A stretch of DNA of 64,000 bases from Candidatus Latescibacterota bacterium (GCA_965248435.1 OZ252100.1:1088001-1152000), one strand, 5' to 3'. Positions 28,779-62,240 are shown, numbered from the stretch's first letter. Translations and numbers: made by a program. Notes: a model not told the origin generated them from the letters alone.

Positions 28779-30470
28779 CTAGCTCTCTCGCTCCACGCGC
28801 ACGATTTGATACCGCCCCTGCTGCCACGCATAAAAGTAAACGTTCGTCGCCTTGCCCCAACCCGACCTACCCGGTCGCCTTGCTTGAATCCTGAACCCAT
28901 AGTATTTCCGTGGTGGCAACTCGGCTGGCACTTTCAGCGTAACTTCACCTCGATGCATTCCTATCGGACCTACGGGGTTGCCTTCTGCATCGATCAGCGT
29001 GTATCGATACGTTGTCCCTTCGGCTGAAGCCAAGTTTCCATTCACGGCCTGATCCTCAAACCGAAGTCCATCCGGATCTATCCAGAATTTATCCAACGGG
29101 TTGATTTTGTCAAACCAGTACTTGCCGATCATATCTCGCCGCTCGATCAACAGCCGCGTCAACTCGGCGGTGGCGTCAGGGTTGGAATAGTGCCCGGTCT
29201 GAACCATGGCCGCGATCTCTTCATCAGAGAACGACATGACGATCTTGGCTCCCCAATAGCCGTCTCGTGCTGTGCATCGTTCGAATGCAGGGTTGGGATA
29301 GGTCGGAACCCACCTGCCCGGCCGGAACGTCTCGTTCTCAAAGTAGCCGAGTTCCGGATATTTCATTGGAAGGGGCTCGTCCCACGCCTTCCGGTAGAGC
29401 CCGAGAGAAATCAACGATAGTCCAACCGTTCGGGCATCCCATAAGTACTCGTTTCCGTATTTGGGCTTGTGCGGCATCAGATTGTTGCTTCCGAAGGTCG
29501 ACCCCATATCAATGATATAGTGTTTCAGATAGCGTCGCCCTTCCTCATCGGCTACGTACATGTCCAGCGTGTTGGCGGCCCGCCGGTCCGCGTCGTTCAT
29601 CCAGGAACCGATCACCCGCAGCCCCCTGAGTTCCCTGCGATGCTGGTGCCTTACCCGGTCGTTTGGGTCGTCCCTTCGCTTGCTGTGATAGTTGAACACA
29701 CCCGCGGGGATGCCGCTCAGGAATCTGCTGGCTACACACCGCAGTCGGCCGTCCGACTGCGGGATGATGTTATCCAGGGTGCCCCGCACGTCAGACCGAT
29801 TCATCGATCGCTTTCCACCCCGACCGTCCGGCACCCTCGCCTTCCGTCCAATCTCTAGAATGGCCGGGTCGAAGGTAACGACGGAGTTTGACGGAACGTT
29901 GTAACCGGCCGCGTGGAGGATCTTTGTCGCAATCACCTCGGCGGCCGAACCCATCTCGTTGTTCCCCTCAGAATCGAACTTGAGCAGGAACAGCGCGCCT
30001 TTTGGATCTCTGATCGTGAACCCGGCCGTGCCGCCTTCGAATTTTCCAGCCACAATCTCCCAGGACCCGCTGGTGTCCGGCTGGGCAAGGCCGGGCCCGC
30101 GCCTCAGTTCATCCAGGCTCATCCGCTCTAGGAAGTGACGATTCGTAAACCAGGAGGAGTTGGGCACCTCGTCCAATGCGTTCACATTGTCCGCTTCCTG
30201 CACGGGCGCAACCCCCAGGATGTTGCCTGTACGTCGGGCGGTCCAGCCCAGGTCGAGCAGCTTGCCGAATTCGTAGAACAGTGTGTGATCGATCACGTCC
30301 CAAATCTGGTTCTCTTCCATCTCTTCGGGCTCTGGAATATGCCGGTTGTCTGGATCCGCCCACTTGATCGGGTCTGTAGTCAACTTCGGGCTGCTGGCGC
30401 AGCCGCTCAGCAGAAGCAAACACAGCACGCTCCAGTACGTGCTCACCGTTCGGTCAAACGCTGATCTCAT
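28779..30470 (-). CDS. Lipoprotein with atypical kinase-like (PI3K/PI4K/HipA-type) motifs
   Basis: Lipobox LSG-C; 'EGGTAGF', 'LLKFD', 'SAAEV', 'NDADRRAAN', 'IIDMGSTFG'. Confidence 0.7.
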   Translation of the reverse strand: MRSAFDRTVSTYWSVLCLLLLSGCASSPKLTTDPIKWADPDNRHIPEPEEMEENQIWDVIDHTLFYEFGKLLDLGWTARRTGNILGVAPVQEADNVNALDEVPNSSWFTNRHFLERMSLDELRRGPGLAQPDTSGSWEIVAGKFEGGTAGFTIRDPKGALFLLKFDSEGNNEMGSAAEVIATKILHAAGYNVPSNSVVTFDPAILEIGRKARVPDGRGGKRSMNRSDVRGTLDNIIPQSDGRLRCVASRFLSGIPAGVFNYHSKRRDDPNDRVRHQHRRELRGLRVIGSWMNDADRRAANTLDMYVADEEGRRYLKHYIIDMGSTFGSNNLMPHKPKYGNEYLWDARTVGLSLISLGLYRKAWDEPLPMKYPELGYFENETFRPGRWVPTYPNPAFERCTARDGYWGAKIVMSFSDEEIAAMVQTGHYSNPDATAELTRLLIERRDMIGKYWFDKINPLDKFWIDPDGLRFEDQAVNGNLASAEGTTYRYTLIDAEGNPVGPIGMHRGEVTLKVPAELPPRKYYGFRIQARRPGRSGWGKATNVYFYAWQQGRYQIVRVERES

Positions 30471-32829: not shown

Positions 32830-32899
32830 AGAGCCCAACTGGAATCGATCCCGCCGGGCTCTGTCACATTGCTTATGTATGGTGGCCCCGAGGAGAGTC
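32830..32899. repeat. att-like junction 1: conserved hairpin + degenerate tRNA-Glu 3' end
   Basis: Hairpin 32830-32862 (loop ctggaatcgatccc); tggtggccccgaggagagtc at 32880-32899 matches 44953-44972 at 18/20. Confidence 0.78.
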
Positions 32900-33001
32900 C
32901 AAGGGAAAGCAACGCTTAAAGGACTCGTGTATCAGCTAGAAATCCAGCCAACCCGTCTCGACGCCGCACTCCCTCAAGTCATCTCCGCTTCTATTAATCA
33001 A

Positions 33002-33868
33002 TCATACCTCCACAACCATTCCATCATAAGCCAGAACGACGCCCCTCCGGGCCATATCCTCGACAATATCCTCGTGGGGTCCGACCTGCCTCAGGCTGAT
33101 GTGCGAGCCTACGATAGCCGTATCGCTACTGATAATCCCCGCTTGGCTAAGCTCAGAAATGGTGTGTTTAACCATGGAAAAATTCTGGTGCCCGGAGCGG
33201 GCCGGGTCGATCTCTAGATCCCCGAAGGTCGCATCGAATACGGCCAGATCCACCTGAAATCGGCGCAGGTAGTCCAGAGTCAGCGGTAGAATATAAGAGG
33301 AATCCAGGCCGTAAAAAACCGTTTTCCCGCCGCGCTCGAAGACATAATTCAGGGCCCGCTGCTCCCTGATCGTGTACTGCTTGTTGATGCAGTGATTGGC
33401 GTCCACTGCCGTGACCGTGGTGTCCCCAACCTCAAAACGCTCCTCCGGCCGAACCAGGTGGAAGTCGACATTTGGCTCGCTCCTCCGAGCGCAGAACCTC
33501 TTGATGCTCTCCTTCCACTCATAGCTCGCCGCAAACTCCAGAGCATCCCCCACCATCCCGTTGCCGTAGATCTGGAGCGTATGGCGCAGACGAGCGGCAA
33601 ATTCCAGAATGGCGACCGGCTGGAAATGATCCTGGTGTCCGTGAGTGATCAACAGGTGCCGGATCGTATCCCCGTTGACGCCGAATTTTCTTAACTGACG
33701 GTCGTCGTAGAAGTCTATCGAAATGTCTGGGGAAATCATGACAGAGGACGCTCGGCGCAGGTTCTTACCCCCGAGTTGCCGAGCCCGGACCAAGTGCTTG
33801 CTTTGGTCCTCCAGATCGTCCAGGAGGTGGAAATCGCCAGCCCCGGTGCCTAGAAACAGGAGCTTCAC
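33002..33868 (-). CDS. MBL-fold metallo-hydrolase (PhnP-like)
   Basis: 'LLFLGTGA', 'LITHGHQDH', 'ANH', 'DAT', 'SH', 'AYDGM'. Confidence 0.85.
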   Translation of the reverse strand: MKLLFLGTGAGDFHLLDDLEDQSKHLVRARQLGGKNLRRASSVMISPDISIDFYDDRQLRKFGVNGDTIRHLLITHGHQDHFQPVAILEFAARLRHTLQIYGNGMVGDALEFAASYEWKESIKRFCARRSEPNVDFHLVRPEERFEVGDTTVTAVDANHCINKQYTIREQRALNYVFERGGKTVFYGLDSSYILPLTLDYLRRFQVDLAVFDATFGDLEIDPARSGHQNFSMVKHTISELSQAGIISSDTAIVGSHISLRQVGPHEDIVEDMARRGVVLAYDGMVVEV

Positions 33869-33934
33869 GCTGTCCTCGAACCGGTCATAGCGCCCGGGCT
33901 CTGCAATCCCGAAACGTCGGCGAACGCAAGGTGC

Positions 33935-35887
33935 TCAAACTGAATGGTCGTCCTCCTTCAGATACTGGCGCAGCCAGTTAATTACGCGCTCGGCCATGTC
34001 CCGTACATGAGCTCGCTCGATGACTCCGTGGGGCTCTCGCGGGTAGACGATCAGCTCGACGGGTATGCCCTTGTCCTTCAGGGCGCGATAGAAGAGATAC
34101 GATTGCTCCACCGGTACGTCTTCGTCCACCTCGCCGTGGAGAATCAGGGTCGGCGTCTGCAGATTGTCGTAGTAGGACAGGGGTGAGAATCGTGTGTATC
34201 GCCCCTCGGCCTCGTAGGGACTGGCCTGGTAGTAGAGCTGGTCCCACGCCGGCAGGCAGCTCTTCCCGTGGAAGCTGAGCCAGTGCGAAATGCCGGCGCC
34301 CATCACCACGGTTCGGAAACGGTCGGTCTGCGACACCGCCCAGGCCGCTATGAAGCCTCCGTAGGACCAGCCGGAAAGGGCCAGTCGATCGGCGTCGGCG
34401 ATACCCGTCCCGATCAGCGAGTCAATACCCAGCATCATGTCCTCGAAGTCCTTGCCGCCCATGTCGCCGAGGTTGCTCTCGGAAAACTTCCGCCCCCAGC
34501 CGACGGAGCCGCGGTAGTTGGGCATGAACACGGCGTAGCCCTCGTTGGCCATCAGCTGGGCCCAGCCGCTGGCGGCGTAGTAACGCGAGCCACTCACACC
34601 GCTCGGCCCTCCGTGCACGCTCATCACCAGCGGGTAGCGCTTGCCGACCTCGTACCCCACCGGCTTTATCAGCAGGCCCTGCATCTTCTCTCCGTCGGCG
34701 CCCATCCATTCGTGGACGTCGGTCTCGCCGATGTCGATATCGGCGCTCTGCGGGTGCAGATTCGTGAGCTGAGTCCACTCGAGGGCGCTGTCCGCCGGGC
34801 GCCCGATCCACACGTCCAGCGGATTTTCGGCGTCCTCCAGCACCACGGCGAGGTCGCCGTTCTCGGCGTGGGAAAAGCGTGGCCAGTTCGCAATGGAGAC
34901 GGCGGCCTGCTGCCACCACAGACTGCTCCGCTCGCCGTCGGCGACACGGATCCGGTAGATCCCCGTGCCGCCCCGCTCGTGACCGATCGTCTGCAGCTCG
35001 CAACCGTCGGGCGACCAGGCCAGCCAGCCGATGCCGGCGACCATGCCCTCGGTGAGGTTGCGCGCCTCCCCTCCGGGCTCGAGCAGCCACGCGTCTCCGG
35101 CCACACACCCCCGATCACTCCAGGTCGAGGAGATGAAGGCCAGTTGCTCGCCGCTGGGCGACCACAGCGGTAGCGCCGCCTGGCACTCCGATTGCCACAG
35201 GGTCTCAACATCGCCGCCCAGATCGAAGCGCACCAGGCGGTTGCCGTACCAGGCGGATTCCGTGGGCAGATCGGACGCCACGGCTGCGATCTCCGATCCA
35301 CTCGGATGCCAGGCGAATTCCCAGATCTGCACCCCCGCCGTCGGTGAGGCACAGCACACTTCCCCTGTCGCCACCTCTACCGTCCACAGCCGCACGTATT
35401 TCAGATTCTGCTCGAAGGTGATAGCGTCGTCTTTGTCTTCGCGCCGCTGTCGCTCCTCGTCGGTCTCCGGGTCTTCCATCAGGAAGCCCAGAGCGCTTCC
35501 ATCCGGCGACCACTGCAGCGCGCTGAGACCTCGCGGCGAGGAGATCTCGCCCTTTATCTCGGTCAGGGCGATGGCTTCGCCGCCGCCGGCCGGGAGCAGA
35601 AACACCTGCCGCTGGCCCTCCTGCAGACGATCGGACAGAAAGGCCACTTGACGGCCGTCCGGCGACCAGCGGGGCAATGAATCGGTCCGCGGTCCGGCAG
35701 TGAGCTGGATCGCTGGCCCTCCCGCTGTACTCACCGTCCAGATGGTGGACCTGGGCCACTTGCTGTCCAACTTGAAGGAATCCCCGACTGTGAAGGCGAC
35801 CCGCGTTCCGTCGGGAGAGATCTGCGCGTCTTCGACACTCTTGAACGACAGTACATCTTCGGTTGTGAGAGGACGCCTTGAAAGCAT
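33935..35887 (-). CDS. S9 family peptidase (acylaminoacyl-peptidase / dipeptidyl aminopeptidase-like)
   Basis: WSPDG propeller repeats, 'VHGGP', 'NYRGS.G.G', 'GWSYGG', 'HGEVDEDVP', 'YPREPH'. Confidence 0.93.
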   Translation of the reverse strand: MLSRRPLTTEDVLSFKSVEDAQISPDGTRVAFTVGDSFKLDSKWPRSTIWTVSTAGGPAIQLTAGPRTDSLPRWSPDGRQVAFLSDRLQEGQRQVFLLPAGGGEAIALTEIKGEISSPRGLSALQWSPDGSALGFLMEDPETDEERQRREDKDDAITFEQNLKYVRLWTVEVATGEVCCASPTAGVQIWEFAWHPSGSEIAAVASDLPTESAWYGNRLVRFDLGGDVETLWQSECQAALPLWSPSGEQLAFISSTWSDRGCVAGDAWLLEPGGEARNLTEGMVAGIGWLAWSPDGCELQTIGHERGGTGIYRIRVADGERSSLWWQQAAVSIANWPRFSHAENGDLAVVLEDAENPLDVWIGRPADSALEWTQLTNLHPQSADIDIGETDVHEWMGADGEKMQGLLIKPVGYEVGKRYPLVMSVHGGPSGVSGSRYYAASGWAQLMANEGYAVFMPNYRGSVGWGRKFSESNLGDMGGKDFEDMMLGIDSLIGTGIADADRLALSGWSYGGFIAAWAVSQTDRFRTVVMGAGISHWLSFHGKSCLPAWDQLYYQASPYEAEGRYTRFSPLSYYDNLQTPTLILHGEVDEDVPVEQSYLFYRALKDKGIPVELIVYPREPHGVIERAHVRDMAERVINWLRQYLKEDDHSV

Positions 35888-36187
35888 GGAAGGTCCCTGT
35901 GTGAAGTTTGAGGAGCAGAGGCTTACGGGCACCCGCTATCTCGGGTCCGTGGGTCAGTTGACGAGGTGGGCGGACTTCATCGACACCCCCAAATATGTAC
36001 AGGGGTACACACGGTAAAACACTGCAGGACGACTGTGTCCCCACCAGTCCCAAAGTGAAGCCCGATCGCACGAGCAAAGCCTGCGACCGGTCACAAAACC
36101 TTCCCCTTTGCTGCGGTCTCTAGGTATCCAACGCAAAGCTCCTTGCAAACCCACTGCCGAACTCTCCGACACGCTCCAACCCGCGCC

Positions 36188-38032
36188 TTACCAGTAGATC
36201 CGCTCTCTCGAGACGAACCGTTCGATCTTCTGCCAGCGGGTGCTGTCGCGTCGATAATGGTCCCGTTGGTACAATGGACAGAGCCGCCCCGGCGGATCGA
36301 TGGCGACCACATCATTGCCCTTCCGCACCAGCGTGAACTTTTCCTTCTCGATCCACACCTCATCGGTCCGCTCCGCAATGGGGAAGGTCATCGTCGCCAC
36401 ATCCCCTGGTTTCACCTCGCCCACCTCCGCATAGCGACCATCCCGACCCACTGGACGATCATTGCCGTTCAACTGCAGTCTCACTTCATCGTGCTTCACC
36501 CACTCCGGGATGCGAATCGACAGCTCTACTGACTCCTTAATTCTCACATCCACCTGCCCTACGTAGGGGACGTGGCTATCAACATCCGCCCAGGGAGAGG
36601 CGCGATTCAGAAGCAGGTTCAGCCGCAACTTGCCAGAATCATGGGTCAAGATATTCTCCCACACGTAATAGAGGGCTCGACTGCCGGTTCCCGTGCAGCA
36701 GTGCATTATACCGTTGCCAACGCCTTCGTACCAGTCGTTGGCCTTGGGCCATCCTCCAAAGGCGCCGATGTTTCGCTCTATCACCCGCTCCGTGGTTTGA
36801 CCCATCGGATCCACTTCCGAGCGGGGCTGTCCCGCCGAATAGCGCCTGAGCCAATCGCCCTTCGCGGGCGTCAACTGCATTTCCACGAGCATGTTCCGCA
36901 CCCAACGATCCACGTCGTCGAGATAGTCTCCCACACCGGCCTCGGTCAGCTTCAGGCCCAGGGCGATCATGGTGGCCACCTCACAGATCTCGGAATGCTG
37001 CAGGTGCGGTGATCCTATAGTCTCCGGGAAATACCCGGTGAGCATTTCGCCGTTGGCCATGCCGTACTGAAAACCCCGGTGGGCGAAATCGATCATCTCC
37101 TGGTCTCCGCTGAGCATGCCATACTCCAGCATGGCCTGCAGACCGATGGCATGGTGATAGAAATGAGCTGTCGGTCTTTCCAAGGGACGGTCGGGCAAGA
37201 AGGTGCCGTCTGGAGCGAAGTGGTTGTTATGGTCCTTCAAATGGCGGCACAACTTGCCTGCCAGTTCCAGGGCCGGCTCGTAGTTCAGGGCCCGATACGC
37301 CTGCGCCAGCCCCACGGCGACCCAGCCGCCAAAGCTGCCCAGAAACGGACCGGGTATTTCTGCGTTCGGGTCTGTCTCCTCTCCCGGCAGAAAAATCGCC
37401 TGTGGGCAGTAAGCGTAATCTTCTCGCTCGATGGCACGCGCAGCCAGGGCATCGACCAGACGCTCGACAACCGACCGCCATACGTCACTACTGTCCCGAA
37501 GCGCGTAGAGGCTCAACGCACCCAGGGCACATCCGCAGTCAGCGGGAAGGGTAAGATGGTCCGCAGCCAAAGTGCGCTCGAGGTCATCATACTTGTCCAG
37601 ACGAACACGTGCCCACGGCCGGCCCCTTGTGGGCATGTAGAGCAGGCCGTCCGGCCCCTGCATGCGCAGGATCACCTCCATCCAGCGCCGCTCCACGTGC
37701 TCGTTCACGTCCGAGCCGCTCACGAGACGCACGAGTTGAAGCGACTCCATGAACTTCCACTGATTTTCGTGATCCCAGCATTGGTGCCGCATCATCGGCG
37801 GATTATGATTCAAGGTGGCGAGGAAATACAGTTCATAATCCGCGTCTGGATCGGTGGGGCCGGTGAGCCCACTTACCGCGAGTGCGGCCCGCTCCTGAAG
37901 ATCCAGGGTATCCGGCACCTGCGCCTCGTAACGCTCCCCGTTGCGGGCGGGAAGCTGAAACTCGGGGATGTCCGGACGGATATAAGCTATGGGGTCCCCT
38001 TGCCTCAGTTGCGTATTAGGCCTATCGCTCAT
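36188..38032 (-). CDS. (alpha/alpha)6-barrel protein, GH127/GH146-like glycoside hydrolase
   Basis: 'HSEICEVA' and 'MHCCTGTG' resemble the GH127 E-x-C and CC Zn/catalytic motifs; 'LSIRIPEWV' C-terminal sandwich. Confidence 0.62.
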   Translation of the reverse strand: MSDRPNTQLRQGDPIAYIRPDIPEFQLPARNGERYEAQVPDTLDLQERAALAVSGLTGPTDPDADYELYFLATLNHNPPMMRHQCWDHENQWKFMESLQLVRLVSGSDVNEHVERRWMEVILRMQGPDGLLYMPTRGRPWARVRLDKYDDLERTLAADHLTLPADCGCALGALSLYALRDSSDVWRSVVERLVDALAARAIEREDYAYCPQAIFLPGEETDPNAEIPGPFLGSFGGWVAVGLAQAYRALNYEPALELAGKLCRHLKDHNNHFAPDGTFLPDRPLERPTAHFYHHAIGLQAMLEYGMLSGDQEMIDFAHRGFQYGMANGEMLTGYFPETIGSPHLQHSEICEVATMIALGLKLTEAGVGDYLDDVDRWVRNMLVEMQLTPAKGDWLRRYSAGQPRSEVDPMGQTTERVIERNIGAFGGWPKANDWYEGVGNGIMHCCTGTGSRALYYVWENILTHDSGKLRLNLLLNRASPWADVDSHVPYVGQVDVRIKESVELSIRIPEWVKHDEVRLQLNGNDRPVGRDGRYAEVGEVKPGDVATMTFPIAERTDEVWIEKEKFTLVRKGNDVVAIDPPGRLCPLYQRDHYRRDSTRWQKIERFVSRERIYW

Positions 38033-38304
38033 GGCATTGTCCCCTCCTCTTTTTCGTCTCCCGTAAATTAAAAGTATCTTTAAATCTAACGACTCATCGG
38101 GCAAACAACGGTGGAACCGACTGTATCCTTGAGTATGGAAAATGGCTGCCGCAACGACGGAGATCGAGGGTCTGATAGTGGGCTTCGCCACGTGTTTCGA
38201 GCCCGACTGTGTCACGCCGGTCGATCTGCGCCTGTATGGAATGCTTATACAATGTACTCCAAATGAATATCACCGAAATCCGCATCCTCAGGGAGAAAAA
38301 AGGG

Positions 38305-38368
38305 AAAGTCCTGCTGGAATCGAATCCCGCAGGACTTTTAGAGCCTTGTTTTTGGTGACCCCGAGGGG
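38305..38368. repeat. att-like junction 2: conserved hairpin + tRNA-Glu 3' end
   Basis: Hairpin aaagtcctgc-tggaatcgaatccc-gcaggacttt at 38305-38338; tggtgaccccgagggg at 38353-38368 is an exact 16-bp match. Confidence 0.85.
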
Positions 38369-38791
38369 TCACGCACAAGTCGCAAACACTTTTGGGGACC
38401 TCTACGCGCTGGAGAAAACGGGCTTCCTGTACGTCGGACCTGCGTGTCGGCAGGCAGCATGAGGCTAGGACTGGATTTTCCGCTCAAAGGAGGGTAGGTA
38501 GCCCCGGTTTCGCAAGCGCACAAAGATAGCCTCCACACGTGCAAATTCCCAGAACAAAAAGGCATCCTCGCGAATTACTACCTCTGAACCGCATTCGCCT
38601 GCACGAGCGACTCACTCCTGATTCGCGTTCCAAGACACACCTTGCAACCCTCATCCTACCTGCATATCTTACCGTAAATTAGTGACTTCATGCTCCGAGG
38701 CTGAAGACGGGACGAACAAATCGGACACCTGTTGAGGGGCACGCTTCGGAGAGAGGTGTGCCCGATTCTCGTGGAGATCTGGCTCTCTTCT

Positions 38792-41700
38792 ATGGTTACT
38801 TCTGTTCGCATATTGCTTGTAGGCTTCTGGATCTCCGGATTTGTCCTCTCAGTCGGAGCTGCGCCGGGGGACATCACCACCGTGGCCGGTGGAGGCGTCG
38901 GCGACGGGCGTCCAGCGACTAATGCGGGCTTGAATGTCCCTAGTAGGCCATTCTTGGATGCGGCGGGCAATCTCTATATCGCGGATACGTTTAATCATCG
39001 GATCCGGAAGGTGGATAGGTCAGGCACCATCACCACCGTGGCGGGAAACGGGTCCGCTGGTTTTTCCGGCGATGGGGGTCCTGCGACCCGTGCAAGCTTG
39101 AATAGACCCTTCGGAGTCTTCGTTGATGAGTCAGGCAATCTCTACATTGCGGATACGGACAATCACCGGATTCGCAAAGTAGATGCGTCGGGCATCATTA
39201 CCACCGTGGCAGGAACTCTCTTCTTTGGTTTTTCCGGCGATGGGGGTCCAGCGACCCGCGCAAGCTTGAATAGTCCTAACGGAGTCTCCGCGGATATGGC
39301 GGGTAATCTCTATATTGCCGAATTTGAAAATCACCGCATCCGCAAAGTGGATACGTCGGGCACCATCACCACCGTGGCGGGAGATGGGACCGCTGCTTAT
39401 TTCGGTGATGGGGGCCCCGCAACGGATGCGAGTTTGGGTTTTCCTTTTGACGTTTTCGTGGATATGTCAGGAAATCTTTACATTGCAGATACGGGCAATA
39501 ACCGAGTTCGCAAAGTGGATACGTCGGGGACCATCACTACCGTGGCAGGAAATGGGACCCATACTTATTTCGGTGATGGGGGCTCTGCAACGGATGCGAG
39601 TTTGGCTTTTCCTTATGGTGTATTCGTGGATCGTTCAGGCAATCTCTATATTGCGGATACGTTTAATAATCGGATTCGGAAAGTAGATCCGTCGGGCACT
39701 ATCACCACCGTAGCTGGAAGTGGGGACTCCTTTAGTCCTTTAGCCGATATAGGTCGTGCAATTACCTTTAACCTATGGGCGCCCAGAGGGATTTTCGGGG
39801 ACGGATCAGGCAATCTCTATATTGCGGATACGTTTAATCATCGGATTCGAAAGGTAGGCCCAGGAGGTGATATCAGCACTGTAGCTGGAGGTGGTTTTGT
39901 CGGCGATGGAAGTCCGGCGACCCACGCAGGCTTGTTCGGCCCTCAAGGCATATTCGTCGACGGGTCGGGAAATCTCTATATCGCCGATCGGGGAAACAAT
40001 CGGATTCGGAAGATAGATGGGACTGGCACGATCACCACCGTGGCGGGAAATGGAAGGATTCGTTTTCGCGGGGATGGAGGTCCGGCAACCAGTGGGAGGG
40101 TGTGGGAGCCTGGAGGCGTTTTCGGAGATCGATCAGGCAATCTCTATATTGCGGATACGTTTAATGATCGGATTCGGAAAGTAGATCCGTCGGGCACTAT
40201 CACCACCGTGGCGGGAAATGGGAACCCTACATTTTCTAGCGAGGGGGGGCCGGCGATCGGTGCAAGCTTGTTTGGTCCTTCTAGCGTTTTTGTAGATAGG
40301 TCAGGCAATCTCTATATTGCGGATACGTTTAATCATCGGATTCGCAAGGTACATCCCTCGGGCGCCATCACCATCATCACCACCGTGGCGGGAAATGGGA
40401 CCCGTGGTTTTTCCGGGGATGGGGGTCCCGCGATCCGTGCAAGTTTGACTTTTCCTTTCGACGTTTTCGTAGATGGGTTAGGCATCCTCTATATTGCGGA
40501 TAAAGACAATCACCGGGTTCGGAAGGTGGATGCGTCGGGGACGATCACCACCGTTGCGGGAAATGGGATCCCTAGTTTTTCCGGCGATGGAGGCCCGGCG
40601 ACGCGCGCGAGCTTGGTTGCACCCAATAGCCTCTTCGTAGATGGGTCGGGCAATCTCTTTATTGCGGATAGAGGCAACAACCGGATTCGGCGAGTGGAAG
40701 GCATTGCGGCACCTCCCAACTTGGTGGTGGGTGTTTTCGAGCCGCCAGCTCTCGTATCTTCCCTGCCGGGGCTTGGACCTGCTTCTCCGGGTGTAGGGCC
40801 AACGCTTTCCGGTCCGCTTCCCATCCTCGGCCCGGGGCTGAACGATCCGCAGGAGGCGGGCACCATTCGAACTATCGCGGGAGGCGATGTTGGTGATGGC
40901 CGGGGCGCCCTGGAGGCAAACCTCCTTTTTCCAAACGATGTTGTTACCGACCAGGAGGGCAACCTCTACATCTCTAGCGGGAGCAACAACCGGGTGCGCC
41001 GCGTCGATGCCCTCACCGGTCTGATCAGCACCGTCGCAGGAACCGGCATCCGCGGCTTCTCCGGCGACGGAGGCAGCGCCGTAGACGCCAAACTTGCTTT
41101 CAATGTTGGTCTTGCCATCGACAGTGCCAGCAACCTCTTCCTTGCGGATGCCGCCAACCACCGCATCCGCCGGGTAGATGCTCAAACAAGCATTATTACA
41201 ACGGTCGCCGGAACAGGTGAGCCCGGCTTCTCCGGGGATGAGGGACCGGCAGTCAATGCGCAACTTTTGTTCCCGGAGGACATAGCTGTAGATCGCGCAG
41301 GAAATCTTTTCATCGCTGACAGGAGCAACCATCGTGTCCGGATGGTCGATTCATCTACCGGACAGATCGTCACTGTAGCAGGCAACGGGGCCCCAGGGTT
41401 TGCGGGAGACGGAGGGCATGCGCTCGCTGCACAGATAGAAGTCCCCGAGAGAATCGCCGTCGATAATTCGGGAAATCTCTATGTCTCAACGGGCAGCCGC
41501 ATCCGCCGCATCGATGCAAAGACGGGCACCGTGACCACAGTCGCGGGCACTACCACCGGCTTTTCCGGAGACGGTGGCCCGGCAACGGAAGCGCAATTCA
41601 GCGACTCTCAGAGAATTGCTATAGACGCACAGGGCAACATCTTCGTGGCGGATCAGGGCAATCACCGCATCCGGAAAGTCGATGCCCAGAGCGGGATTGT

Positions 41701-43087
41701 CACCACCCTGGTCGGCACAGGTAAGTTGGGCTTTTCCGGAGACGGTGGTCCGGCTGCCCAGGCCCAGCTCTTTTTTCCAGAAGCTGTCGCCTTAGACAAC
41801 AAGGGAAGCCTGTTGATTGCAGACCAAGGGAACAGTCGCATTCGAAAGGTGGTCCTTCGAACAAACACCATCACTACTGGAGCGGGCGGGGGTGTAGGCG
41901 ATGGACGGCCCGCATTACAGGCACAGCTTGGCTTTCCGAGGCACATCGTTCTGGATGACTTGGGCAATCTCTACATTGCAGACCGCAGCCATAACCGCAT
42001 TCGAAGAGTCGATGCGAAGACCGGACTCATCAGCACGATCGCAGGTACAGGTATTCGCGGATCTACGGGAGACGGTGGACCGGCCACAAGCGCCCTGATT
42101 GCATTTCCATTCGGCCTGGCCGTAGATCGTGCAGGAAACCTGTTTATTTCTGATTTCGAAAACGACCGCATCCGGAAGACCGATCTCAAGACAGGCATCA
42201 TCGCAACGGTTGCAGGAGCCGATACAGCAGGGTTTTCCGGGGACGGCGGGCAAGCTGTGCAAGCTCAACTCGACGATCCATTAGGCCTCGCTCTCGACAG
42301 TGCCGGCAACCTCTTCTTTGCAGATGCCGAGAACCACCGTGTCCGGCGTGTGGATACGAAAACCGGTGTGATTACCACCATTGCAGGCACGGACACGGAA
42401 GGACTCTCAGGAGATGGCGGTCCAGCGACAGCGGCGGCCTTGTTGCATCCCCGGGATGTGGCCGTGGACGCCGCAGATAACCTGTTTATCGCGGATACTT
42501 TCAACGACCGCATCCGGAAGGTCGATCTCAAGACAGGCATCATTACAACGGTTGCAGGAGCCGATACAGCAGGGTTTTCCGGAGACGGCGGGCCCGCTGT
42601 GGAGGCTACACTTAGTTTTCCATCATCCATTGCTCTGGATGCCAAAAGTAACCTGTTTATAGGCGACCTTGGCAACGACCGTATCCGGAAGGTCGATGCC
42701 AGCACGGGCATCATAAGCACGGTTGCCGGCAGCGGGACACGCGGATTTTCCGGGGACGGCGGGCCTGCTACCAAGGCGGCCTTTTTGGGGCTCTGGGGGG
42801 TAGCGATCACGCCTTCGGGAGACCTCCTGATCTCCGATGCCACCAATCATCGAATCCGTCGTGTAGCGGGCATCGCTGCGCCTACGACGCATGGGGATGC
42901 CGTGGTTAAGACTTCCGATTTCAACGGAGATGGAACGGTAAACTTTGAGGATTTCCTTGAATTTGCGCAGAATTTCAGCAAGAACCAGAGCGATCCGGAT
43001 TTCGACGCGACGTATGATCTAAACGACGACGGGGAGGTGAATTTCATGGACTTTTTCCAGTTTGCCCAGGCCTTCGGTCAGGCCTGA
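38792..43087 (+). CDS. Large secreted NHL-repeat (teneurin-like beta-propeller) protein with C-terminal EF-hand/dockerin-like tail
   Basis: Signal peptide; about 23 'GNLYIAD..NHRIRKVD..G.ITTVAG.G..GFSGDGGPA' repeats; Pro-rich linker; 'SDFNGDGTVNFEDF..YDLNDDGEVNFMDF'. Confidence 0.9.
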   Translation: MVTSVRILLVGFWISGFVLSVGAAPGDITTVAGGGVGDGRPATNAGLNVPSRPFLDAAGNLYIADTFNHRIRKVDRSGTITTVAGNGSAGFSGDGGPATRASLNRPFGVFVDESGNLYIADTDNHRIRKVDASGIITTVAGTLFFGFSGDGGPATRASLNSPNGVSADMAGNLYIAEFENHRIRKVDTSGTITTVAGDGTAAYFGDGGPATDASLGFPFDVFVDMSGNLYIADTGNNRVRKVDTSGTITTVAGNGTHTYFGDGGSATDASLAFPYGVFVDRSGNLYIADTFNNRIRKVDPSGTITTVAGSGDSFSPLADIGRAITFNLWAPRGIFGDGSGNLYIADTFNHRIRKVGPGGDISTVAGGGFVGDGSPATHAGLFGPQGIFVDGSGNLYIADRGNNRIRKIDGTGTITTVAGNGRIRFRGDGGPATSGRVWEPGGVFGDRSGNLYIADTFNDRIRKVDPSGTITTVAGNGNPTFSSEGGPAIGASLFGPSSVFVDRSGNLYIADTFNHRIRKVHPSGAITIITTVAGNGTRGFSGDGGPAIRASLTFPFDVFVDGLGILYIADKDNHRVRKVDASGTITTVAGNGIPSFSGDGGPATRASLVAPNSLFVDGSGNLFIADRGNNRIRRVEGIAAPPNLVVGVFEPPALVSSLPGLGPASPGVGPTLSGPLPILGPGLNDPQEAGTIRTIAGGDVGDGRGALEANLLFPNDVVTDQEGNLYISSGSNNRVRRVDALTGLISTVAGTGIRGFSGDGGSAVDAKLAFNVGLAIDSASNLFLADAANHRIRRVDAQTSIITTVAGTGEPGFSGDEGPAVNAQLLFPEDIAVDRAGNLFIADRSNHRVRMVDSSTGQIVTVAGNGAPGFAGDGGHALAAQIEVPERIAVDNSGNLYVSTGSRIRRIDAKTGTVTTVAGTTTGFSGDGGPATEAQFSDSQRIAIDAQGNIFVADQGNHRIRKVDAQSGIVTTLVGTGKLGFSGDGGPAAQAQLFFPEAVALDNKGSLLIADQGNSRIRKVVLRTNTITTGAGGGVGDGRPALQAQLGFPRHIVLDDLGNLYIADRSHNRIRRVDAKTGLISTIAGTGIRGSTGDGGPATSALIAFPFGLAVDRAGNLFISDFENDRIRKTDLKTGIIATVAGADTAGFSGDGGQAVQAQLDDPLGLALDSAGNLFFADAENHRVRRVDTKTGVITTIAGTDTEGLSGDGGPATAAALLHPRDVAVDAADNLFIADTFNDRIRKVDLKTGIITTVAGADTAGFSGDGGPAVEATLSFPSSIALDAKSNLFIGDLGNDRIRKVDASTGIISTVAGSGTRGFSGDGGPATKAAFLGLWGVAITPSGDLLISDATNHRIRRVAGIAAPTTHGDAVVKTSDFNGDGTVNFEDFLEFAQNFSKNQSDPDFDATYDLNDDGEVNFMDFFQFAQAFGQA

Positions 43088-43096
43088 GCAAGGACC

Positions 43097-43175
43097 AGCC
43101 CTGCTGGAATGGATCCAACAGGGCTTCTATCGTCATCAGGTGTTTGCGAGTTCTTTGGTGACCCCGAGGGGAGTC
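43097..43175. repeat. att-like junction 3: conserved hairpin + tRNA-Glu 3' end
   Basis: Hairpin 43097-43125 (loop ctggaatggatccaa); tggtgaccccgaggggagtc at 43156-43175 is an exact 20-bp match to 44953-44972. Confidence 0.88.
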
Positions 43176-43422
43176 CACCGGTATGCAACGCTTGTGATAG
43201 CTCGAAATCCAGCTCTATTGCTGATGGAGCTGCGTGACGCAGCTTAGTCTGGCACCGCCTGATCCGACGTCACTTCAATTCCAGCAATCCCCTCCATAAG
43301 CATCTCTTGGCCGCCGTTCCTCGCCGTCGTATCTTGGGTTGCGATGTGCACCTATGTCACCATCCATAAGACACATTTGCTATCCACTGCTCTTCGCGGA
43401 AAACCAAAGGACGAGCCCAGCC

Positions 43423-44508
43423 ATGGACGAAAACCCTACGGTCAGCACCGTATTCGAGATCGAGCCGCCGGATCCACCCAACGACGGCATCATGTTCGTA
43501 GACCACGCCCGATCGGGCCGTAGTGGCCACCTGGGCCACGCGCTCGTTGAATATGCACCGGGGAAAATCCTGGCGTTCTACTCCAACTGCTCGGATAGGA
43601 ACGACGGACACACGGGGGACGGGTGGATGGAATACCGGCGTTCCGAAGACGGGGGACGAACCTGGAGCGCCGGCGAAGTGCTTGCCTACTCCAAGGCGGT
43701 CTACGACAGGAACGCTGGAAAGTCCGTCATGTGTGAGAATGCCGTGCGAGCCGACGACGGGGCGGTCGTCCTGTTCAACCTGGAGTGCGGGAACACGGCC
43801 GAAGAGAAGTGGGCGTGGGCGCCGCTGGACGTTCCCACGTGTCTTCGCAGTACGGATGACGGCCGTACGTGGGGACCTGCGGAACCGATGGGCGATCAAC
43901 CCGGCCGCATCTGGGATGCGATGGTTCACGACGGCAGCATCCTGGTTCTCGAGCTGTGCAACGACAGCTCGATCCAATGGTACGGCAACCTTCCCGAGCA
44001 CTTCTACGGGCTCTATGCAAGCACCGATCACGGGCGCAGCTTCGCCCTGCGGAGCAAGCTGCCGCTCGAGATCCAGTGTCGGGGCTACGGCGCCCTGTCG
44101 ATTCTCCAAGACGGCGGACTGATCGCCTACGTCTACAACATGGCCGACGAAAAACACCTGGACTACGTCATCAGTCACGACGGCGGCTACACCTGGAGCG
44201 ACGTGCAAACCGCGTTTTTTGAGAAGCAGATTCGAAATCCGCAGATGGCCCGCTTCAAAGGCGGATACGTCCTTCACGGACGGAGCGGAGCCCAGGGAGA
44301 AGGGAGCGGACATTTCGTACTGTATACGTCGGACGACGGCATCCACTGGGACTCGGGACGCTACCTGCGGATGCAGGAGGCGCGCGCCGGCGCATACTCG
44401 AACAATTTACGCGTGCACAGCCCCGATGCACCGGAACGCCTGCTGATCCAGGCTTCCCACGCGTACGAAGGATATATGACGAACATCCTGCACTGGTGGC
44501 TGACTTAG
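43423..44508 (+). CDS. BNR/Asp-box (sialidase-fold) protein
   Basis: Five Asp-boxes: SEDGGRTW, STDDGRTW, STDHGRSF, SHDGGYTW, SDDGIHW. Confidence 0.85.
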   Translation: MDENPTVSTVFEIEPPDPPNDGIMFVDHARSGRSGHLGHALVEYAPGKILAFYSNCSDRNDGHTGDGWMEYRRSEDGGRTWSAGEVLAYSKAVYDRNAGKSVMCENAVRADDGAVVLFNLECGNTAEEKWAWAPLDVPTCLRSTDDGRTWGPAEPMGDQPGRIWDAMVHDGSILVLELCNDSSIQWYGNLPEHFYGLYASTDHGRSFALRSKLPLEIQCRGYGALSILQDGGLIAYVYNMADEKHLDYVISHDGGYTWSDVQTAFFEKQIRNPQMARFKGGYVLHGRSGAQGEGSGHFVLYTSDDGIHWDSGRYLRMQEARAGAYSNNLRVHSPDAPERLLIQASHAYEGYMTNILHWWLT

Positions 44509-44568
44509 TGGAAGGTCCCACGGGCCTCAGATTTCGCCAGGTCACATGACTCTCGGAGGTCCGATGAC

Positions 44569-44871
44569 TCATCAAATTCACCGACAGCGGCAGCGTGACG
44601 GTGAATGCGGCCACCGAGGACTGGCAACGTCATCGCCGTGTCCGATACCGGCAAGGGCATCCCCTCAGACGAACCACCCACCATCTTCGACGAATACCGT
44701 CAGGCCGAAGGGTCCGAGAGCAGCGTGCAGAAGGGCACCGGGCTGGGGCTGTCGATTACGAAGAAATTCGCGGAGCTGCTGGGCGGGACGATCGGCGTGG
44801 TGAGCGAAGTGGGCAAGGGCAGCACGTTTACGGTGCGGGTGCCGGTTGAGTATGGCGACGGACAATCCTGA
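44569..44871 (+). pseudogene. Histidine kinase HATPase C-terminal fragment
   Basis: 'IKFTDSGSV' then a frameshift, then 'VSDTGKGIP..IFDEY.Q..GTGLGLSITKKFAELLGG..GKGSTF'; no N-terminus. Confidence 0.82.
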
Positions 44872-44903
44872 CCGCTGACCTCTGTCTTCTGCTCTCTAAT
44901 CAC

Positions 44904-44940
44904 AAAGGCGCCCCTTCGGTCTGGCCGAAAGGGCGCCTTT
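44904..44940. terminator. Bidirectional terminator downstream of tRNA-Glu
   Basis: aaaggcgcccc-ttcgg..ccgaa-agggcgccttt. Confidence 0.8.
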
Positions 44941-44952
44941 CATTGTCAAAAA

Positions 44953-45027
44953 TGGTGACCCCGAGGGGAGTCGAACCCCCGTTGCCGGATTGAAAGCCCG
45001 GTGTCCTAACCGCTGAACGACGGGGTC
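44953..45027 (-). tRNA. tRNA-Glu(TTC)
   Basis: Minus strand GACCCCG...CGGGGTC-A-CCA, anticodon loop ctTTCaa, GGTTCGACTCC T-arm. Confidence 0.95.
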
Positions 45028-46229: not shown

Positions 46230-46660
46230 GCAGTCAGGTCACGCTCTATGTGGATGGGGCCTCCAAAGGAAACCCTGGCCGGTCCGGAATTGGTGTGCGA
46301 ATCGAATCAAACGGCGAGCTGATCCTGGAATCTTCAGACTACATCGGCGAGACCACGAACAACTCCGCAGAATACCAGGCACTGATTCGCGGTCTTGAGA
46401 TGGCAAAGGAAGTCGGTGCAAGTCTCGTCGACGTCGTGTCCGACAGCGAGCTTATGGTAAAACAGTTGAATGGCCTCTATAGAGTTAAGACCCAGTCGCT
46501 TAAGCCACTATATGATAAGGCGATAAAACTGTCTGGCGGGTTTGATGGGTTCCGGATTCGGCACGTTGATCGATCGAAGAACCAGGAGGCCGACAGGCTG
46601 GCGAACGAGGGAATTCTAAAGGCAGCATTGGCGAGTGGGCCGGATGGTCGCGCCCGATAG
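46226..46660 (+). CDS. rnhA: Ribonuclease HI
   Basis: 'YVDGASKGNPG', 'TNNSAEY', 'DSEL', 'N.EADRLAN'. Confidence 0.92.
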   Translation: MSSQVTLYVDGASKGNPGRSGIGVRIESNGELILESSDYIGETTNNSAEYQALIRGLEMAKEVGASLVDVVSDSELMVKQLNGLYRVKTQSLKPLYDKAIKLSGGFDGFRIRHVDRSKNQEADRLANEGILKAALASGPDGRAR

Positions 46661-47009
46661 GGTGAGGAAAGTCCGAGCTCCGAAGGGCAGGATGCTGGGT
46701 AACGCCCAGGCGGGGTAACCCGACGGAAAGTGCCACAGAGAATAGACCGCCAGCGAGCGGGACCGCAAGTCTCGCAGCGGGCAAGGGTGAAACGGCGGGG
46801 TAAGAGCCCACCGCGCCTCCCGGTGACGGGGGCGGCACGGCAAACCCCATCTGAAGCAAGGCCAAATAGGAGCGGAGAGGTGGCCCGCCTCGCTACAACG
46901 CTCGGGTTGGCCGCGTGAGGCATCGGGTAACCGATGCCCCAGATAAATGACCATCCATTCGGTCCTCATCCGGACCGAGGGACAGAACTCGGCTTACAGG
47001 CCCACTCGC
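46631..47009 (+). ncRNA. rnpB: RNase P RNA (type A)
   Basis: GAGGAAAGTCC, AGTGCCACAGA, GGGTGAAAC, GGCAAACCCC, ACAGAACTCGGCTTA; P1 gcgagtgggcc/ggcccactcgc. Confidence 0.96.
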
Positions 47010-47019
47010 TTTTCAAACC

Positions 47020-48399: not shown

Positions 48400-50544
48400 T
48401 CATTTAAAATAGCGCTTCAGCAGCCGACCTGCCTCCCCCGCTTCGACGCCCTGCGCCTTCAAGGATTGCAGCCTCTCAAACGCTTCCGCATCCCGACCGA
48501 ATCTTCTGACGGCCGCGATGTAAGCGGAATCCGACTGAGCGTAGTCTTTGTTCACCAGGTAAAACAGTGCAAGGTCGAAATGCGCGCTGCTCAGGTCTGG
48601 GTTCAGCGCGACGGCTTCCTTTGCCTCCAAAATGGCCTCTACAAAATACCCGGCCTGGAAATATTCGCGTCCCAGACTTTGTCTGATCTCTGCCAGGTCC
48701 ATCGTGGGCCGCGAGTGCATCGAAGTGAGTAGCCTCTCGATAATCACCTGTGCCTCCTCCACGCTTCCCGATCTCAAGTATGCACGGCCCAGCTTATACA
48801 CAACAGGGAGATAGTCCGGCGCCAATTCAGCTGCCAATCCATACTCCCTGATCGCTTGATCGTTCAGACCGAGCTGGAAGTGAATGTCGCCCATGGTCTC
48901 CCGGGCCAGCGGCTGCCCGTATAGCTGGTCTGAAAACAGGTGCGTGACCCGCTCATTCCAGGATGGCACTGAACGTTGCTCTCCTTTTGGCGCTGCTTGA
49001 GTGCGTTCGTAGACCGATACCGTTCCGAAATCTCTGGCCAAACGATAGACTGGGATATGCCCCGCTCTCAGGTATCTATAAAAATAGTGTGAATCAAGGA
49101 ATAGATCCTTGCCCAGCTGGGTCCGGCTAGTATCACCCAGATCACTATAATGGCTCGCCGTGGCCTCCCGAACCACAAGCAGATCTGGTTTCAGATGGTT
49201 CACCATTGGATAACTCTGCCCGATCGCAGTCGGTACCGCCTTGAGAAATTTGGGTGGAACGTAGGCATAGGCGTCGTAAAGGACCGACCTCTCCGGTGGA
49301 AAGGTCGCCTCGATCCACTTGCCAGCCGAAATTTCATGGCTGAGTTTCTCCCGCTTCCACCTCCCACGGAAAAAGCTTGCATCTCCGGCAAGGGGCTCCC
49401 ACAGAAGCAGCGCGAGAAACAGGGGGAGCAGAACCTGGAGGACCGGAATCCTTTCTGACAGCCGAGCCCGGGTCCACATCATGCTTCGGTGGACCAAATC
49501 GGATACAAAGAGCAGCGCGACTGGCAGGATTGGAAGCAAGTACCTTGTTCGCCTCACGTTGATTTCAAGAACGAGATACGAAAGCACGACACCGATCCAG
49601 ACTAGCAAGATCCCACGATCCATCGGAAGTTTGCGACGACTCAACGAATAGCTCGCAGCGCCCAGGGCACAGACAAAAATCAGCAGGCCGACCCTTCCCA
49701 ATATCCCGGCAAGTGCCCCGACCCACATTATCCCTCTGTCGTCTTCGCGGACAACGTGACCGGTTTCCATGATCTCTTTGAAGGCTGACAGACTGCCCGT
49801 GAATTCCCCAAACCGGACGACAGCGTAAGGAGTCGTAAAGGCAAAGACAAGCGCAAAAACGCATGGGACGATCAGCAGAGCCCTCAAGAAGCCCCAATCG
49901 TTTATCTGTTGGGCCACGCCTCCCGGTCGCGAGGCAGATGCCGCCAACGCGATAACCGGGAGCAGGAAGATCCCGATGTATTTGGTCCCGAATGCGAGTC
50001 CCGCGAACAGTGAGGCGAGCAGGATCCATCTCAACCTGAATTCGTTCGCCAGTCGACAGCACGCGAGAAGCGCGCACAGTACCCAGAACAACTGGGGAAG
50101 ATCGGGATGGGACTCTACCGACCAGCGTATGAAAACGGGCATTACAGCCAGCAGGACGCAGGCGATGGATGCCGCCACCGGATTGAACACCCGGAGACCG
50201 ATCCGATAGGTCATCCAAAGACACCCCAATCCGGCCAGCGTACAGAACCCACGAAGCGTGACGACGATCATTCGTTCGGAAACGTCTCCCAACGCACCAA
50301 GAAATTTCAGGGCGACCATCGGCAGGTAGTAGAAGAGCCCACCATATTTGTACGTGCCAGGATCGAGCGTTTCCCCCCGGTAGAGGTGACGCACAACCGT
50401 TGCGGCCCCAAACTCATCCAGGGAGTAAACACCGGCCATTCGGAGATCGTCTGCCGCTACGGAGAGCAAGGGAAGCGTGAAGGCAATGTAGAAGAGCCCG
50501 CAGAGTACCGCGCAGAGGGACGGCCATTCTCTAACGGCTCGCAT
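48400..50544 (-). CDS. GT-C (ArnT/PMT, GT39/83-like) glycosyltransferase with C-terminal TPRs, copy 3
   Basis: 'YSLDE', 'YKYGG', 'HPDLPQLFW', 'AFGTKY', 'RYLLPILP', TPR tail. Confidence 0.85.
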   Translation of the reverse strand: MRAVREWPSLCAVLCGLFYIAFTLPLLSVAADDLRMAGVYSLDEFGAATVVRHLYRGETLDPGTYKYGGLFYYLPMVALKFLGALGDVSERMIVVTLRGFCTLAGLGCLWMTYRIGLRVFNPVAASIACVLLAVMPVFIRWSVESHPDLPQLFWVLCALLACCRLANEFRLRWILLASLFAGLAFGTKYIGIFLLPVIALAASASRPGGVAQQINDWGFLRALLIVPCVFALVFAFTTPYAVVRFGEFTGSLSAFKEIMETGHVVREDDRGIMWVGALAGILGRVGLLIFVCALGAASYSLSRRKLPMDRGILLVWIGVVLSYLVLEINVRRTRYLLPILPVALLFVSDLVHRSMMWTRARLSERIPVLQVLLPLFLALLLWEPLAGDASFFRGRWKREKLSHEISAGKWIEATFPPERSVLYDAYAYVPPKFLKAVPTAIGQSYPMVNHLKPDLLVVREATASHYSDLGDTSRTQLGKDLFLDSHYFYRYLRAGHIPVYRLARDFGTVSVYERTQAAPKGEQRSVPSWNERVTHLFSDQLYGQPLARETMGDIHFQLGLNDQAIREYGLAAELAPDYLPVVYKLGRAYLRSGSVEEAQVIIERLLTSMHSRPTMDLAEIRQSLGREYFQAGYFVEAILEAKEAVALNPDLSSAHFDLALFYLVNKDYAQSDSAYIAAVRRFGRDAEAFERLQSLKAQGVEAGEAGRLLKRYFK

Positions 50545-55130: not shown

Positions 55131-55244
55131 GAGTGCTGGAGTAATGCTGGAATGGAGTGTTGGAGTCATGTAAAGGCAGGTCCTGCAATACTCCCGTACT
55201 CCAGTACTCCAGTACTCCAGTACTCCAGTACTCCAGTACTCCAG
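55131..55244. repeat. Octamer tandem repeat (TACTCCAG)x6 plus one variant, with an upstream inverted partner
   Basis: 55189-55244 can pair with gagtgctggagtaatgctggaatggagtgttggagt at 55131-55166. Confidence 0.9.
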
Positions 55245-55284
55245 GATCGGGTGGCCGAAAAGTCAAAGTAAAGGCGAGTTTGTT

Positions 55285-62189: not shown

Positions 62190-62240
62190 TGCGACTCCCC
62201 TTCCCTGTCGGTTCTCAGGATATCGACCTCAAACCAACTG

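Follow-up and report, generated by a model that had tools for sequence, protein, structure and literature searches.

A tRNA-Glu gene in the genome of a Candidatus Latescibacterota bacterium is followed, on its 3′ side, by a tandem array of three gene blocks, separated from each other and from the neighbouring DNA by copies of the 3′ end of that gene. I analysed this array within a stretch of 64,000 nucleotides (GCA_965248435.1, OZ252100.1:1088001–1152000; hereafter the window, with positions counted from its first letter), where it occupies positions 32,830 to 45,027. It is a real array of modules anchored at a tRNA gene and bounded by attachment (att) sites, which lacks integrases and most likely represents a relic of serial integration. 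I consider it moderately probable that it arose by tandem accretion, through repeated site-specific integration at the T-loop and 3′ end of tRNA-Glu, followed by loss of the integrases. The modules are most likely fixed relics, and at best could be mobilised by the integrase of a related element.

Displaced copies of the tRNA-Glu 3′ end

The last 20 nucleotides of tRNA-Glu, encoded CCA included, appear as their reverse complement at 44953–44972 on the plus strand. This 20-mer was used to search the whole window with up to three mismatches, and 100 shuffled sequences served as control. Exactly four matches were found, all on the plus strand and co-oriented with the live copy: the live tRNA-Glu itself at 44953 (no mismatch), 43156–43175 (20/20, no mismatch), 32880–32899 (18/20, two mismatches) and 38353–38368 (16/16, followed by TCAC in place of AGTC, hence three mismatches over 20). 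The expected number of matches is 0.01, and four were reached in 0/100 shuffles. The copies are spaced 5473, 4803 and 1797 nucleotides from start to start, and the three displaced ones all lie within 12.1 kb of tRNA-Glu on its 3′ side, with none in the remaining ∼52 kb. An earlier reading, made from the sequence alone (the sequence-only reading), had placed tRNA-Glu 3′-end repeats at 43156, 38353 and 32880 and had given the blocks sizes of about 1.8, 4.8 and 5.5 kb; the search and the spacings bear out both. No further copies were found in the 64 kb, either by the mismatch search or with a profile of the three displaced units, which gave E = 0.078 for the live tRNA core and, as its best extra match, 29394–29427 (E = 0.64), inside a gene.

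For insertion into tRNA genes there is a canonical scheme of crossover sublocations. On the structure line of the Rfam match, the 20-nt repeat is made up of the four final T-loop bases (GACU), the T-stem's 3′ strand (CCCCU), the acceptor stem's 3′ strand (CGGGGUC), the discriminator A and the CCA. Identity to the tRNA begins inside the T-loop and ends with the gene, as at these sublocations; in the copy at 38353 it begins one step later, at the T-stem. Such a block, running from T-loop to CCA, is a canonical target of integrases. A 20-bp repeat with an insertion point midway along the T-loop has been described for the tmRNA gene of Dehalococcoides, and was related there to the canonical sublocations II and III (PMC3146451).

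Each displaced copy is embedded in a homologous unit of ∼100–117 nt (labelled u1 to u3, Table 1) that consists of a hairpin, a spacer and the core, with a right arm common to two of the three (u1 and u3). The 16–20-mers of the sequence-only reading are therefore real, but not as bare repeats. Alignment of u1 (43097–43213) with u3 (32832–32948) extends over 117 nt, with a local score of 56, where 100 shuffles gave at most 31. The flanks were also compared after removal of the 20-mer, aligning 70 nt on each side pairwise against 1000 shuffles. On the hairpin side they are alike in all three displaced pairs (observed score reached in 0/1000 shuffles for each pair). On the other side only u1 and u3 are alike (0/1000), and the right arm of u2 shows no significant likeness to either. 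The arm common to u1 and u3 reads GCAACGCTT...GAAATCCAGC (two matches to this pattern, none expected), and both units break from the tRNA at the same nucleotide before continuing into this non-tRNA arm. Between the flanks of the displaced copies and the tRNA body, or the flank downstream of the live tRNA, no likeness was found (scores reached in 283–989 of 1000 shuffles), which argues that the displaced copies are not duplicates of the tRNA gene. Chance similarity, as an explanation for the copies, is already refuted by the shuffle controls on both the repeat and its flanks.

The hairpins of the units are imperfect, with 12–17 bp, and lie 12–30 nt after the CCA in the sense of the tRNA. Their fold z-scores are −5.03 for u2, −3.54 for u1 and −1.83 for u3, the last being reached in 10 of 200 shuffles. 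A core joined to a stable hairpin would be expected if incoming DNA must supply a functional tRNA 3′ end. A strong hairpin also stands next to the live tRNA-Glu, 12 nt past its CCA and 33 nt after the stop of the kinase remnant described below; its sequence is unlike that of the hairpin common to the three displaced units. The core of u2 contains an inverted repeat whose 8-bp arms match perfectly across a 2-nt spacer (GTGACCCC-GA-GGGGTCAC, 38355–38372), whereas the live tRNA end is only a near-palindrome.

All three units are located in intergenic DNA. They possess an internal hairpin and no terminal inverted repeats, no target-site duplications were seen on reading their flanks, and they match no Rfam family at the gathering score or at E up to 5. 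For u1, plasmid and phage collections gave no match at E up to 1. An exact unit pattern (hairpin-loop motif, gap, core), to which all three units of the window conform, was found in 185,579 species genomes, a set that does not include the genome of the window, as two chance matches only; these, in a Mycobacterium and a Spirochaetaceae metagenome-assembled genome (MAG), were rejected since there is no tRNA there and the sequence is coding-like. An apparent likeness in a MAFFT alignment, of the giant NHL gene's dockerin end to DNA on the left of u3, was also rejected: the local alignment stopped short, and a minus-strand pseudogene starts in this region.

Cargo of the blocks and its relatives

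The three modules measure 1.8 kb with two genes (block 1), 4.8 kb with one gene (block 2) and 5.5 kb with three genes (block 3). Blocks 1 and 2 read on the plus strand and block 3 on the minus strand. Pfam supports the content that the sequence-only reading had assigned to them, namely an Asp-box protein, a kinase fragment, a giant NHL protein, a metallo-beta-lactamase (MBL) fold hydrolase, an S9 peptidase and, weakly, a GH127-like protein. The gene debris that it had seen on both flanks is real as well, and corresponds to a frameshifted NHL frame on the left and to the kinase remnant, with its stops and frameshift, on the right.

In block 1, which spans 43176–44952 between the repeat copies, the kinase remnant is truncated at its 5′ end exactly at the stop codon of the BNR gene. 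The part encoding the N-box contains two in-frame stops and a frameshift, leaving an open reading frame (ORF) of 88 aa at 44605–44871. Similar short ORFs (65–88 aa, 90.6–98.9% identity) are present in five other entries of the protein collection, with three different C-terminal tails. The giant NHL gene of block 2 has a likely ATG start at 38792, followed by a signal-like N-terminus, and gave no exact match in the protein collection under six guessed starts. It is built from about two dozen repeats of 168–171 nt, in two sub-families located before and after ∼40900. Just outside u3, the N-terminal, Walker-A-like part of the pseudogene (GERRSGKTS) and its C-terminal part with NHL repeats are in different frames; no exact protein-collection match was found for this pseudogene (two guesses), for an Omp85-like gene (four guesses) or for two unit-spanning ORFs. 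Within the window the cargo has no paralogues except for one NHL-repeat match, and the intervening blocks are unrelated to each other. GC content at third codon positions (GC3) is mosaic, with 0.57 for the NHL gene, 0.75 for the BNR gene and 0.81 for the S9 gene (the maximum in the window), against about 0.60–0.70 in most genes of the window.

Table 1. Positions and supporting evidence for the tRNA-Glu gene, the junction units, the cargo genes and their neighbours
Feature	Position	Strand	Evidence and details
tRNA-Glu(UUC)/(ttc), anchor of the array	44953..45027	-	ARAGORN; Rfam 61.8 bits, full cloverleaf
Strong hairpin near the live tRNA	44904..44940		Fold z = -5.02, 0/200 shuffles
Unit 1 (u1), junction of blocks 1 and 2	43097..43213	+	Hairpin 43097-43125, 30-nt spacer, core 43156-43175, right arm to 43213
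Unit 2 (u2), junction of blocks 2 and 3	38301..38400	+	Hairpin 38305-38338, core 38353-38368
Unit 3 (u3), outermost displaced copy	32830..32948	+	Hairpin 32830-32862, 17-nt spacer, core 32880-32899, right arm to 32948
BNR/Asp-box (sialidase-fold) gene, 361 aa, block 1	43423..44508	+	Pfam BNR_2; start per collection entry P0241; open frame from 43339
Histidine-kinase remnant, HATPase_c domain only, block 1	44520..44871	+	Pfam HATPase_c, profile positions 37-110 of 111; six-frame reading
Giant NHL-repeat protein, C-terminal dockerin/EF-hand, sole gene of block 2	38732..43087	+	Pfam TEN_NHL, NHL, Dockerin_1
GH127-like protein, 614 aa, block 3	36188..38032	-	Weak Pfam Glyco_hydro127M, E = 8.6e-6; start per collection entry P0390; open frame to 38215
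S9 prolyl-oligopeptidase-family peptidase, 650 aa, block 3	33935..35887	-	Pfam Peptidase_S9, E = 2e-50; open frame to 35932
MBL-fold hydrolase, 288 aa, block 3	33002..33868	-	Pfam Lactamase_B_2
Frameshifted pseudogene just outside u3	32076..~32800	-	Six-frame reading; Pfam NHL E = 1e-8, weak AAA_14 E = 0.065
Housekeeping genes right of tRNA-Glu: tRNA-Val, CT398-like protein, RNase H, RNase P RNA, pyrF			ARAGORN, Pfam, Rfam

Relatives were compared through the protein collection, using the protein identities and the contigs of the entries; in this collection the window is part of a contig of 5,656,476 bp. Three genes to the right of the array set the scale for close relatives, with identities of 97.5–99.2% for the CT398-like protein, 96.5–98.6% for RNase H and 88.7–90.5% for pyrF, while the nearest named pyrF homologues (∼60% identity) come from MAGs labelled Latescibacteria or Gemmatimonadota. 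For block 3, the closest S9 homologue (P0385) is 98.3% identical and the closest MBL homologue (P0122) 89.9% identical, and each is on a contig of 37,468 bp. Homologues of two left-flank genes, one for an unknown protein of 563 aa (unk563, 96.1%) and one for LysR, are also on a contig of this length, presumably one and the same. The S9 and MBL genes thus apparently co-occur with left-flank genes in the nearest relative, from which the distal module would be old. GH127 relatives are found on a 9,169-bp contig (97.9%) and on a 5,182-bp contig (95.8%). In the nearest relative, the S9 and GH127 genes are accordingly on different contigs (37,468 and 9,169 bp), though 300 nt apart in the window, and the CT398 and pyrF genes are on a third one, of 14,475 bp. 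The split between S9 and GH127 could reflect variable junctions, or merely assembly breaks.

The BNR gene of block 1 has a different distribution. Its 90% cluster has 24 members, with 92.8–99% identity among the 14 members compared, and the next-best homologues outside the cluster are at 72%. The cluster includes proteins from contigs of 8,426,055 bp (98.6% identical), 2,381,705 bp and 775,674 bp, none of which has a member in the 90% clusters of CT398 or RNase H. The MBL homologue of the 8.4-Mb contig is only 50% identical, and pyrF from this contig is absent among the best 120 matches, which go down to ∼52% identity. A near-identical BNR protein on a contig this distant, judged by its other homologue at ∼50%, has the signature of a recent horizontal transfer between distant genomes. 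As for a vector, the BNR protein has no plasmid match, and block 1 DNA showed only generic kinase-domain and tRNA similarity to plasmid and phage collections.

Proposed serial integration and the alternatives to it

In the reading that I favour, each integrating DNA would have carried an attP-like site, composed of a right arm, a 16–20-nt copy of the tRNA 3′ end, a short spacer and a hairpin. Recombination by a tyrosine-type integrase, which would be the maker of the repeats, would rebuild the tRNA gene from the copy that comes in, and shift the old 3′ end and all DNA that follows it to a more distant downstream position. On this view the three displaced copies would represent junctions between successive insertions, each running from a right arm through the core into the left arm of the following element. 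The module by the tRNA (BNR gene and kinase remnant, with a 20/20 repeat) would be the youngest, and the distal module (GH127-like, S9 and MBL genes, with an 18/20 repeat) older than the split from the nearest known relative. This age order is consistent with accretion, because the perfect repeat and the transferred gene are found by the tRNA, and the imperfect repeats and the genes shared with relatives further out. The scars at the block edges, namely the kinase cut at the BNR stop and the frameshifted gene outside u3, also count for accretion, as does the mosaic GC3. Of the serial accretion at the tRNA proposed in the sequence-only reading, site-specific insertion is therefore retained, on account of the co-orientation of the copies, the T-loop block, the flank homology and the BNR transfer; capture in trans and a fourth unit are not.

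A number of results weigh against serial integration. Under a plain model of tandem insertion by elements of the same family, the live tRNA should adjoin the family hairpin, and the DNA outside u3 should be chromosomal flank; the opposite is seen for both. No fourth repeat that would close a putative fourth unit, such as the one suggested left of 32830 by the sequence-only reading, exists in the window. No empty site, circular junction or polymorphism was seen, and the sole genome scan is the one that gave two chance matches. A scan for simple or consensus terminators flagged neither the unit hairpins nor that of the live tRNA, so these are terminator-like by positional analogy only. Among 49 ORF translations across the whole 64 kb, there is no match to integrase, recombinase or transposase Pfam families (Phage_integrase included), which extends to the entire window the earlier observation that the array lacks such genes. 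Likewise, 83 stop-to-stop frames (30 aa or longer), drawn from the intergenic gaps of 26–45 kb, gave no recombinase remnant at E up to 1, and neither set contained an excisionase. In the compact blocks 2 and 3 there is little space for a decayed gene, their largest non-coding stretch being the ∼760 nt around u2. The identities of the S9 and MBL proteins in the nearest relative are similar to those of core genes (compare 99.2% for CT398 and 90.5% for pyrF), and homologues of GH127, BNR and the kinase remnant are also at least 90% identical. All the cargo genes with a look-up hence have homologues at ∼90% or higher, and the content does not look strain-specific; it may be conserved rather than variable. 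The sequence-only reading had named identical, syntenic content in relatives as a sign against it, and this is found in part, for S9 and MBL together with left-flank homologues. Such apparent conservation speaks against an actively shuffling array.

The mismatch in hairpin and flank means that the plain tandem model needs an extra assumption, for which there are two candidates. Block 1 may have undergone a deletion or a replacement, perhaps as a deletion fusion with the kinase cut at the BNR stop as its scar, in which an integrase was possibly lost too, and a fourth, decayed element may lie left of u3. Alternatively, the modules may have formed from DNA downstream of tRNA-Glu genes, each starting with a native hairpin. 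Decay of the integrases, an option already considered in the sequence-only reading, corresponds to the published idea of cis-mobilizable elements. The 83 intergenic frames contain no remnant of any mobility gene. The integrases would have been removed by deletions; the truncated kinase and the frameshifted gene show deletions at the block edges.

Setting serial integration aside, the ∼100–117-nt unit could itself be a small intergenic repeat, either a terminator with a tRNA end or an attP-derived miniature, copied locally among resident genes, in which case the blocks would not be insertions. It is true that all three units are complete and share homology on the side of a hairpin that the live tRNA does not have, that every unit is intergenic, and that in a relative the genes of block 3 keep their synteny with the flank, at identities like those of core genes. 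I nevertheless consider this explanation unlikely, given that the copies number only three, share the tRNA's orientation and lie within 12 kb of it, with none in the other ∼52 kb. The units also lack terminal inverted repeats and visible target duplications, tRNA identity stops exactly at the T-loop as in integrase products, and the exact pattern occurs in 0 of 185,579 species genomes, bar the two chance matches; the truncated genes at block edges and the BNR transfer equally argue for insertion. Remnants of tandem tRNA-Glu genes, or of homologous recombination or duplication without a site-specific recombinase, are a further alternative, in which each copy would be a native 3′ end with its terminator. 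A core followed by a spacer and a hairpin does resemble the end of a tRNA gene with its own terminator, and the hairpin flank is common to the three displaced copies. However, none of the three retains any of the 55-nt tRNA body upstream of the T-loop, their right flanks are unrelated to this body (score matched in 668–824 of 1000 shuffles), and u1 and u3 leave the tRNA at the same nucleotide for a common non-tRNA arm. With blocks that are also mutually unrelated (the paralogue search gave the one NHL match), I regard this origin as very improbable.

A last alternative is that the blocks are true cassettes, which never carried an integrase and are moved in trans at the ∼117-nt units by an unlinked tyrosine recombinase, with the tRNA-Glu 3′ end as primary site, which would make the array a functional analogue of an integron. 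The units would then be working sites: blocks would be excised as circles with one unit, and a recombinase encoded elsewhere in the genome, or by a visiting element, would reinsert them at the T-loop and 3′ end of tRNA-Glu. The tRNA gene would stand in for an integron attI, the BNR gene in distant genomes would represent one circulating cassette, and the common hairpin flank would indicate that cassettes are minted from DNA downstream of tRNA-Glu genes. Several features fit, since units closely delimit blocks 2 and 3, homology links the units among themselves, like the attC sites of a sedentary integron, a common hairpin flank would be expected for cassettes arising from DNA downstream of a tRNA, and the block 1 gene is near-identical in distant genomes. 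The complete lack of recombinase debris also keeps this explanation alive, if only as a distinctly unlikely one. The putative attI has no integrase beside it, nor do the 64 kb as a whole contain one, and blocks of one to three genes in both orientations, one gene being 4.3 kb long, are unlike promoterless, co-oriented cassettes. Moreover, the comparison with a relative suggests vertical inheritance of the block 3 genes together with the left flank, circles or a variable order are not in evidence, and Rfam returned nothing for the units. The integron-like capture in trans suggested by the sequence-only reading hence found no positive evidence, and working sites are similarly doubtful.

If the modules are only relics, as the serial integration reading has them, their value is mainly one of annotation, as they add three tRNA fragments of the attR type, two pseudogenes and a sialidase-fold gene that was transferred recently. 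The array is nonetheless a clean, small example, in a poorly known lineage, of a tRNA gene that serves as landing pad and grows by accretion. Its notable points are that the modules are small and clean, that the ∼117-nt junction unit is conserved and that a distant genome contains a near-identical BNR gene. If the modules could still be moved in trans, this would be gene capture at a tRNA without a resident integrase, with a bearing on how cargo-only DNA spreads between distant bacteria.

Other features of the window and known systems

Several other features were noted in the window. A TLC-type ATP/ADP translocase at 27329–28658 is split over two overlapping ORFs, indicating a frameshift or a pseudogene, and its upstream half corresponds to a 234-aa protein in a singleton cluster. 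The RNase P RNA (class A, 303 bits) is located at 46632–47012, between RNase H and pyrF, and the ORFs called over it (e.g. 46616–46969, minus strand) are spurious. Three tandem paralogues of ∼725 aa each, with a PMT_2 glycosyltransferase domain and TPR repeats, are encoded at 48400–54876. An 8-nt unit, GTACTCCA, is present in about nine tandem copies at 55180–55251, just upstream of a response-regulator gene (55285–56025). Finally, an operon at 59721–63756 encodes a McsA-like UVR protein, an ATP:guanido phosphotransferase (McsB-like) and a ClpC-type ATPase.

Comparable arrays have already been published, as the ssrA islands of Dehalococcoides, as products of accretion that include cis-mobilizable elements (CIMEs), as the genomic islands of Prochlorococcus and as attR-type tRNA fragments. 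Compared to miniature inverted-repeat transposable elements or REP-like sequences, the units have no terminal inverted repeats or target duplications, and only three copies exist in the window, clustered behind the tRNA. Integron arrays consist of blocks separated by similar site-like units of ∼100 nt with an imperfect palindrome, and the present array is alike in this respect. It differs in having no intI by the array, multigene blocks in both orientations, and units that contain a tRNA 3′ end instead of an attC core.

Islander-type islands in tRNA genes (PMC4383910) and attR-type tRNA fragments (PMC9897764) are described as having the same ends as the array, namely a regenerated tRNA and a displaced 3′ fragment. 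Islander-type islands carry a tyrosine integrase, and none was found in the 49 ORFs of the window or the 83 intergenic frames. The tycheposon islands of Prochlorococcus are reported to result from successive integrations at one tRNA, with partial tRNA copies in between; newer elements push older ones deeper, and the island is strewn with partial tRNAs and degenerated elements (bioRxiv 10.1101/2020.12.28.424599). They differ, in that account, by their integrase-carrying elements and fragmented integrases, neither of which was seen in the array.

CIMEs, as defined for ICESt1/ICESt3 of Streptococcus thermophilus and presented in a review (PMC5704250), are elements without integration and transfer genes that keep attL and attR, are found in tandem at the 3′ end of the target gene, and form by integration, decay and further integration. 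This is similar to the array, where each block is bounded by two core copies with homologous flanks and contains no integration or transfer genes. CIMEs are recognised by homology to a known integrative and conjugative or integrative and mobilizable element, and have been shown to move with it; the array has no known parent or detectable decayed remnants.

For the ssrA islands of Dehalococcoides, the published description (PMC3146451) gives a tmRNA target, a CcrB-type serine recombinase and 16 islands that keep a six-gene integration module. The present array differs by its tRNA-Glu target, by the absence of integration genes from all three modules (0/3), and by its much smaller size (1.8–5.5 kb). 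That description also reports some ssrA islands without an integration module, for which the authors suggest cis-mobilizable elements or fixed relics, and an extra conservation of ∼85 bp around the ssrA repeats, in sequence not alignable to the gene. The two systems otherwise have much in common: 20-bp repeats of the 3′ end of a tRNA or tRNA-like gene, insertion at the T-loop, islands arranged in tandem downstream, and conserved sequence flanking each repeat.

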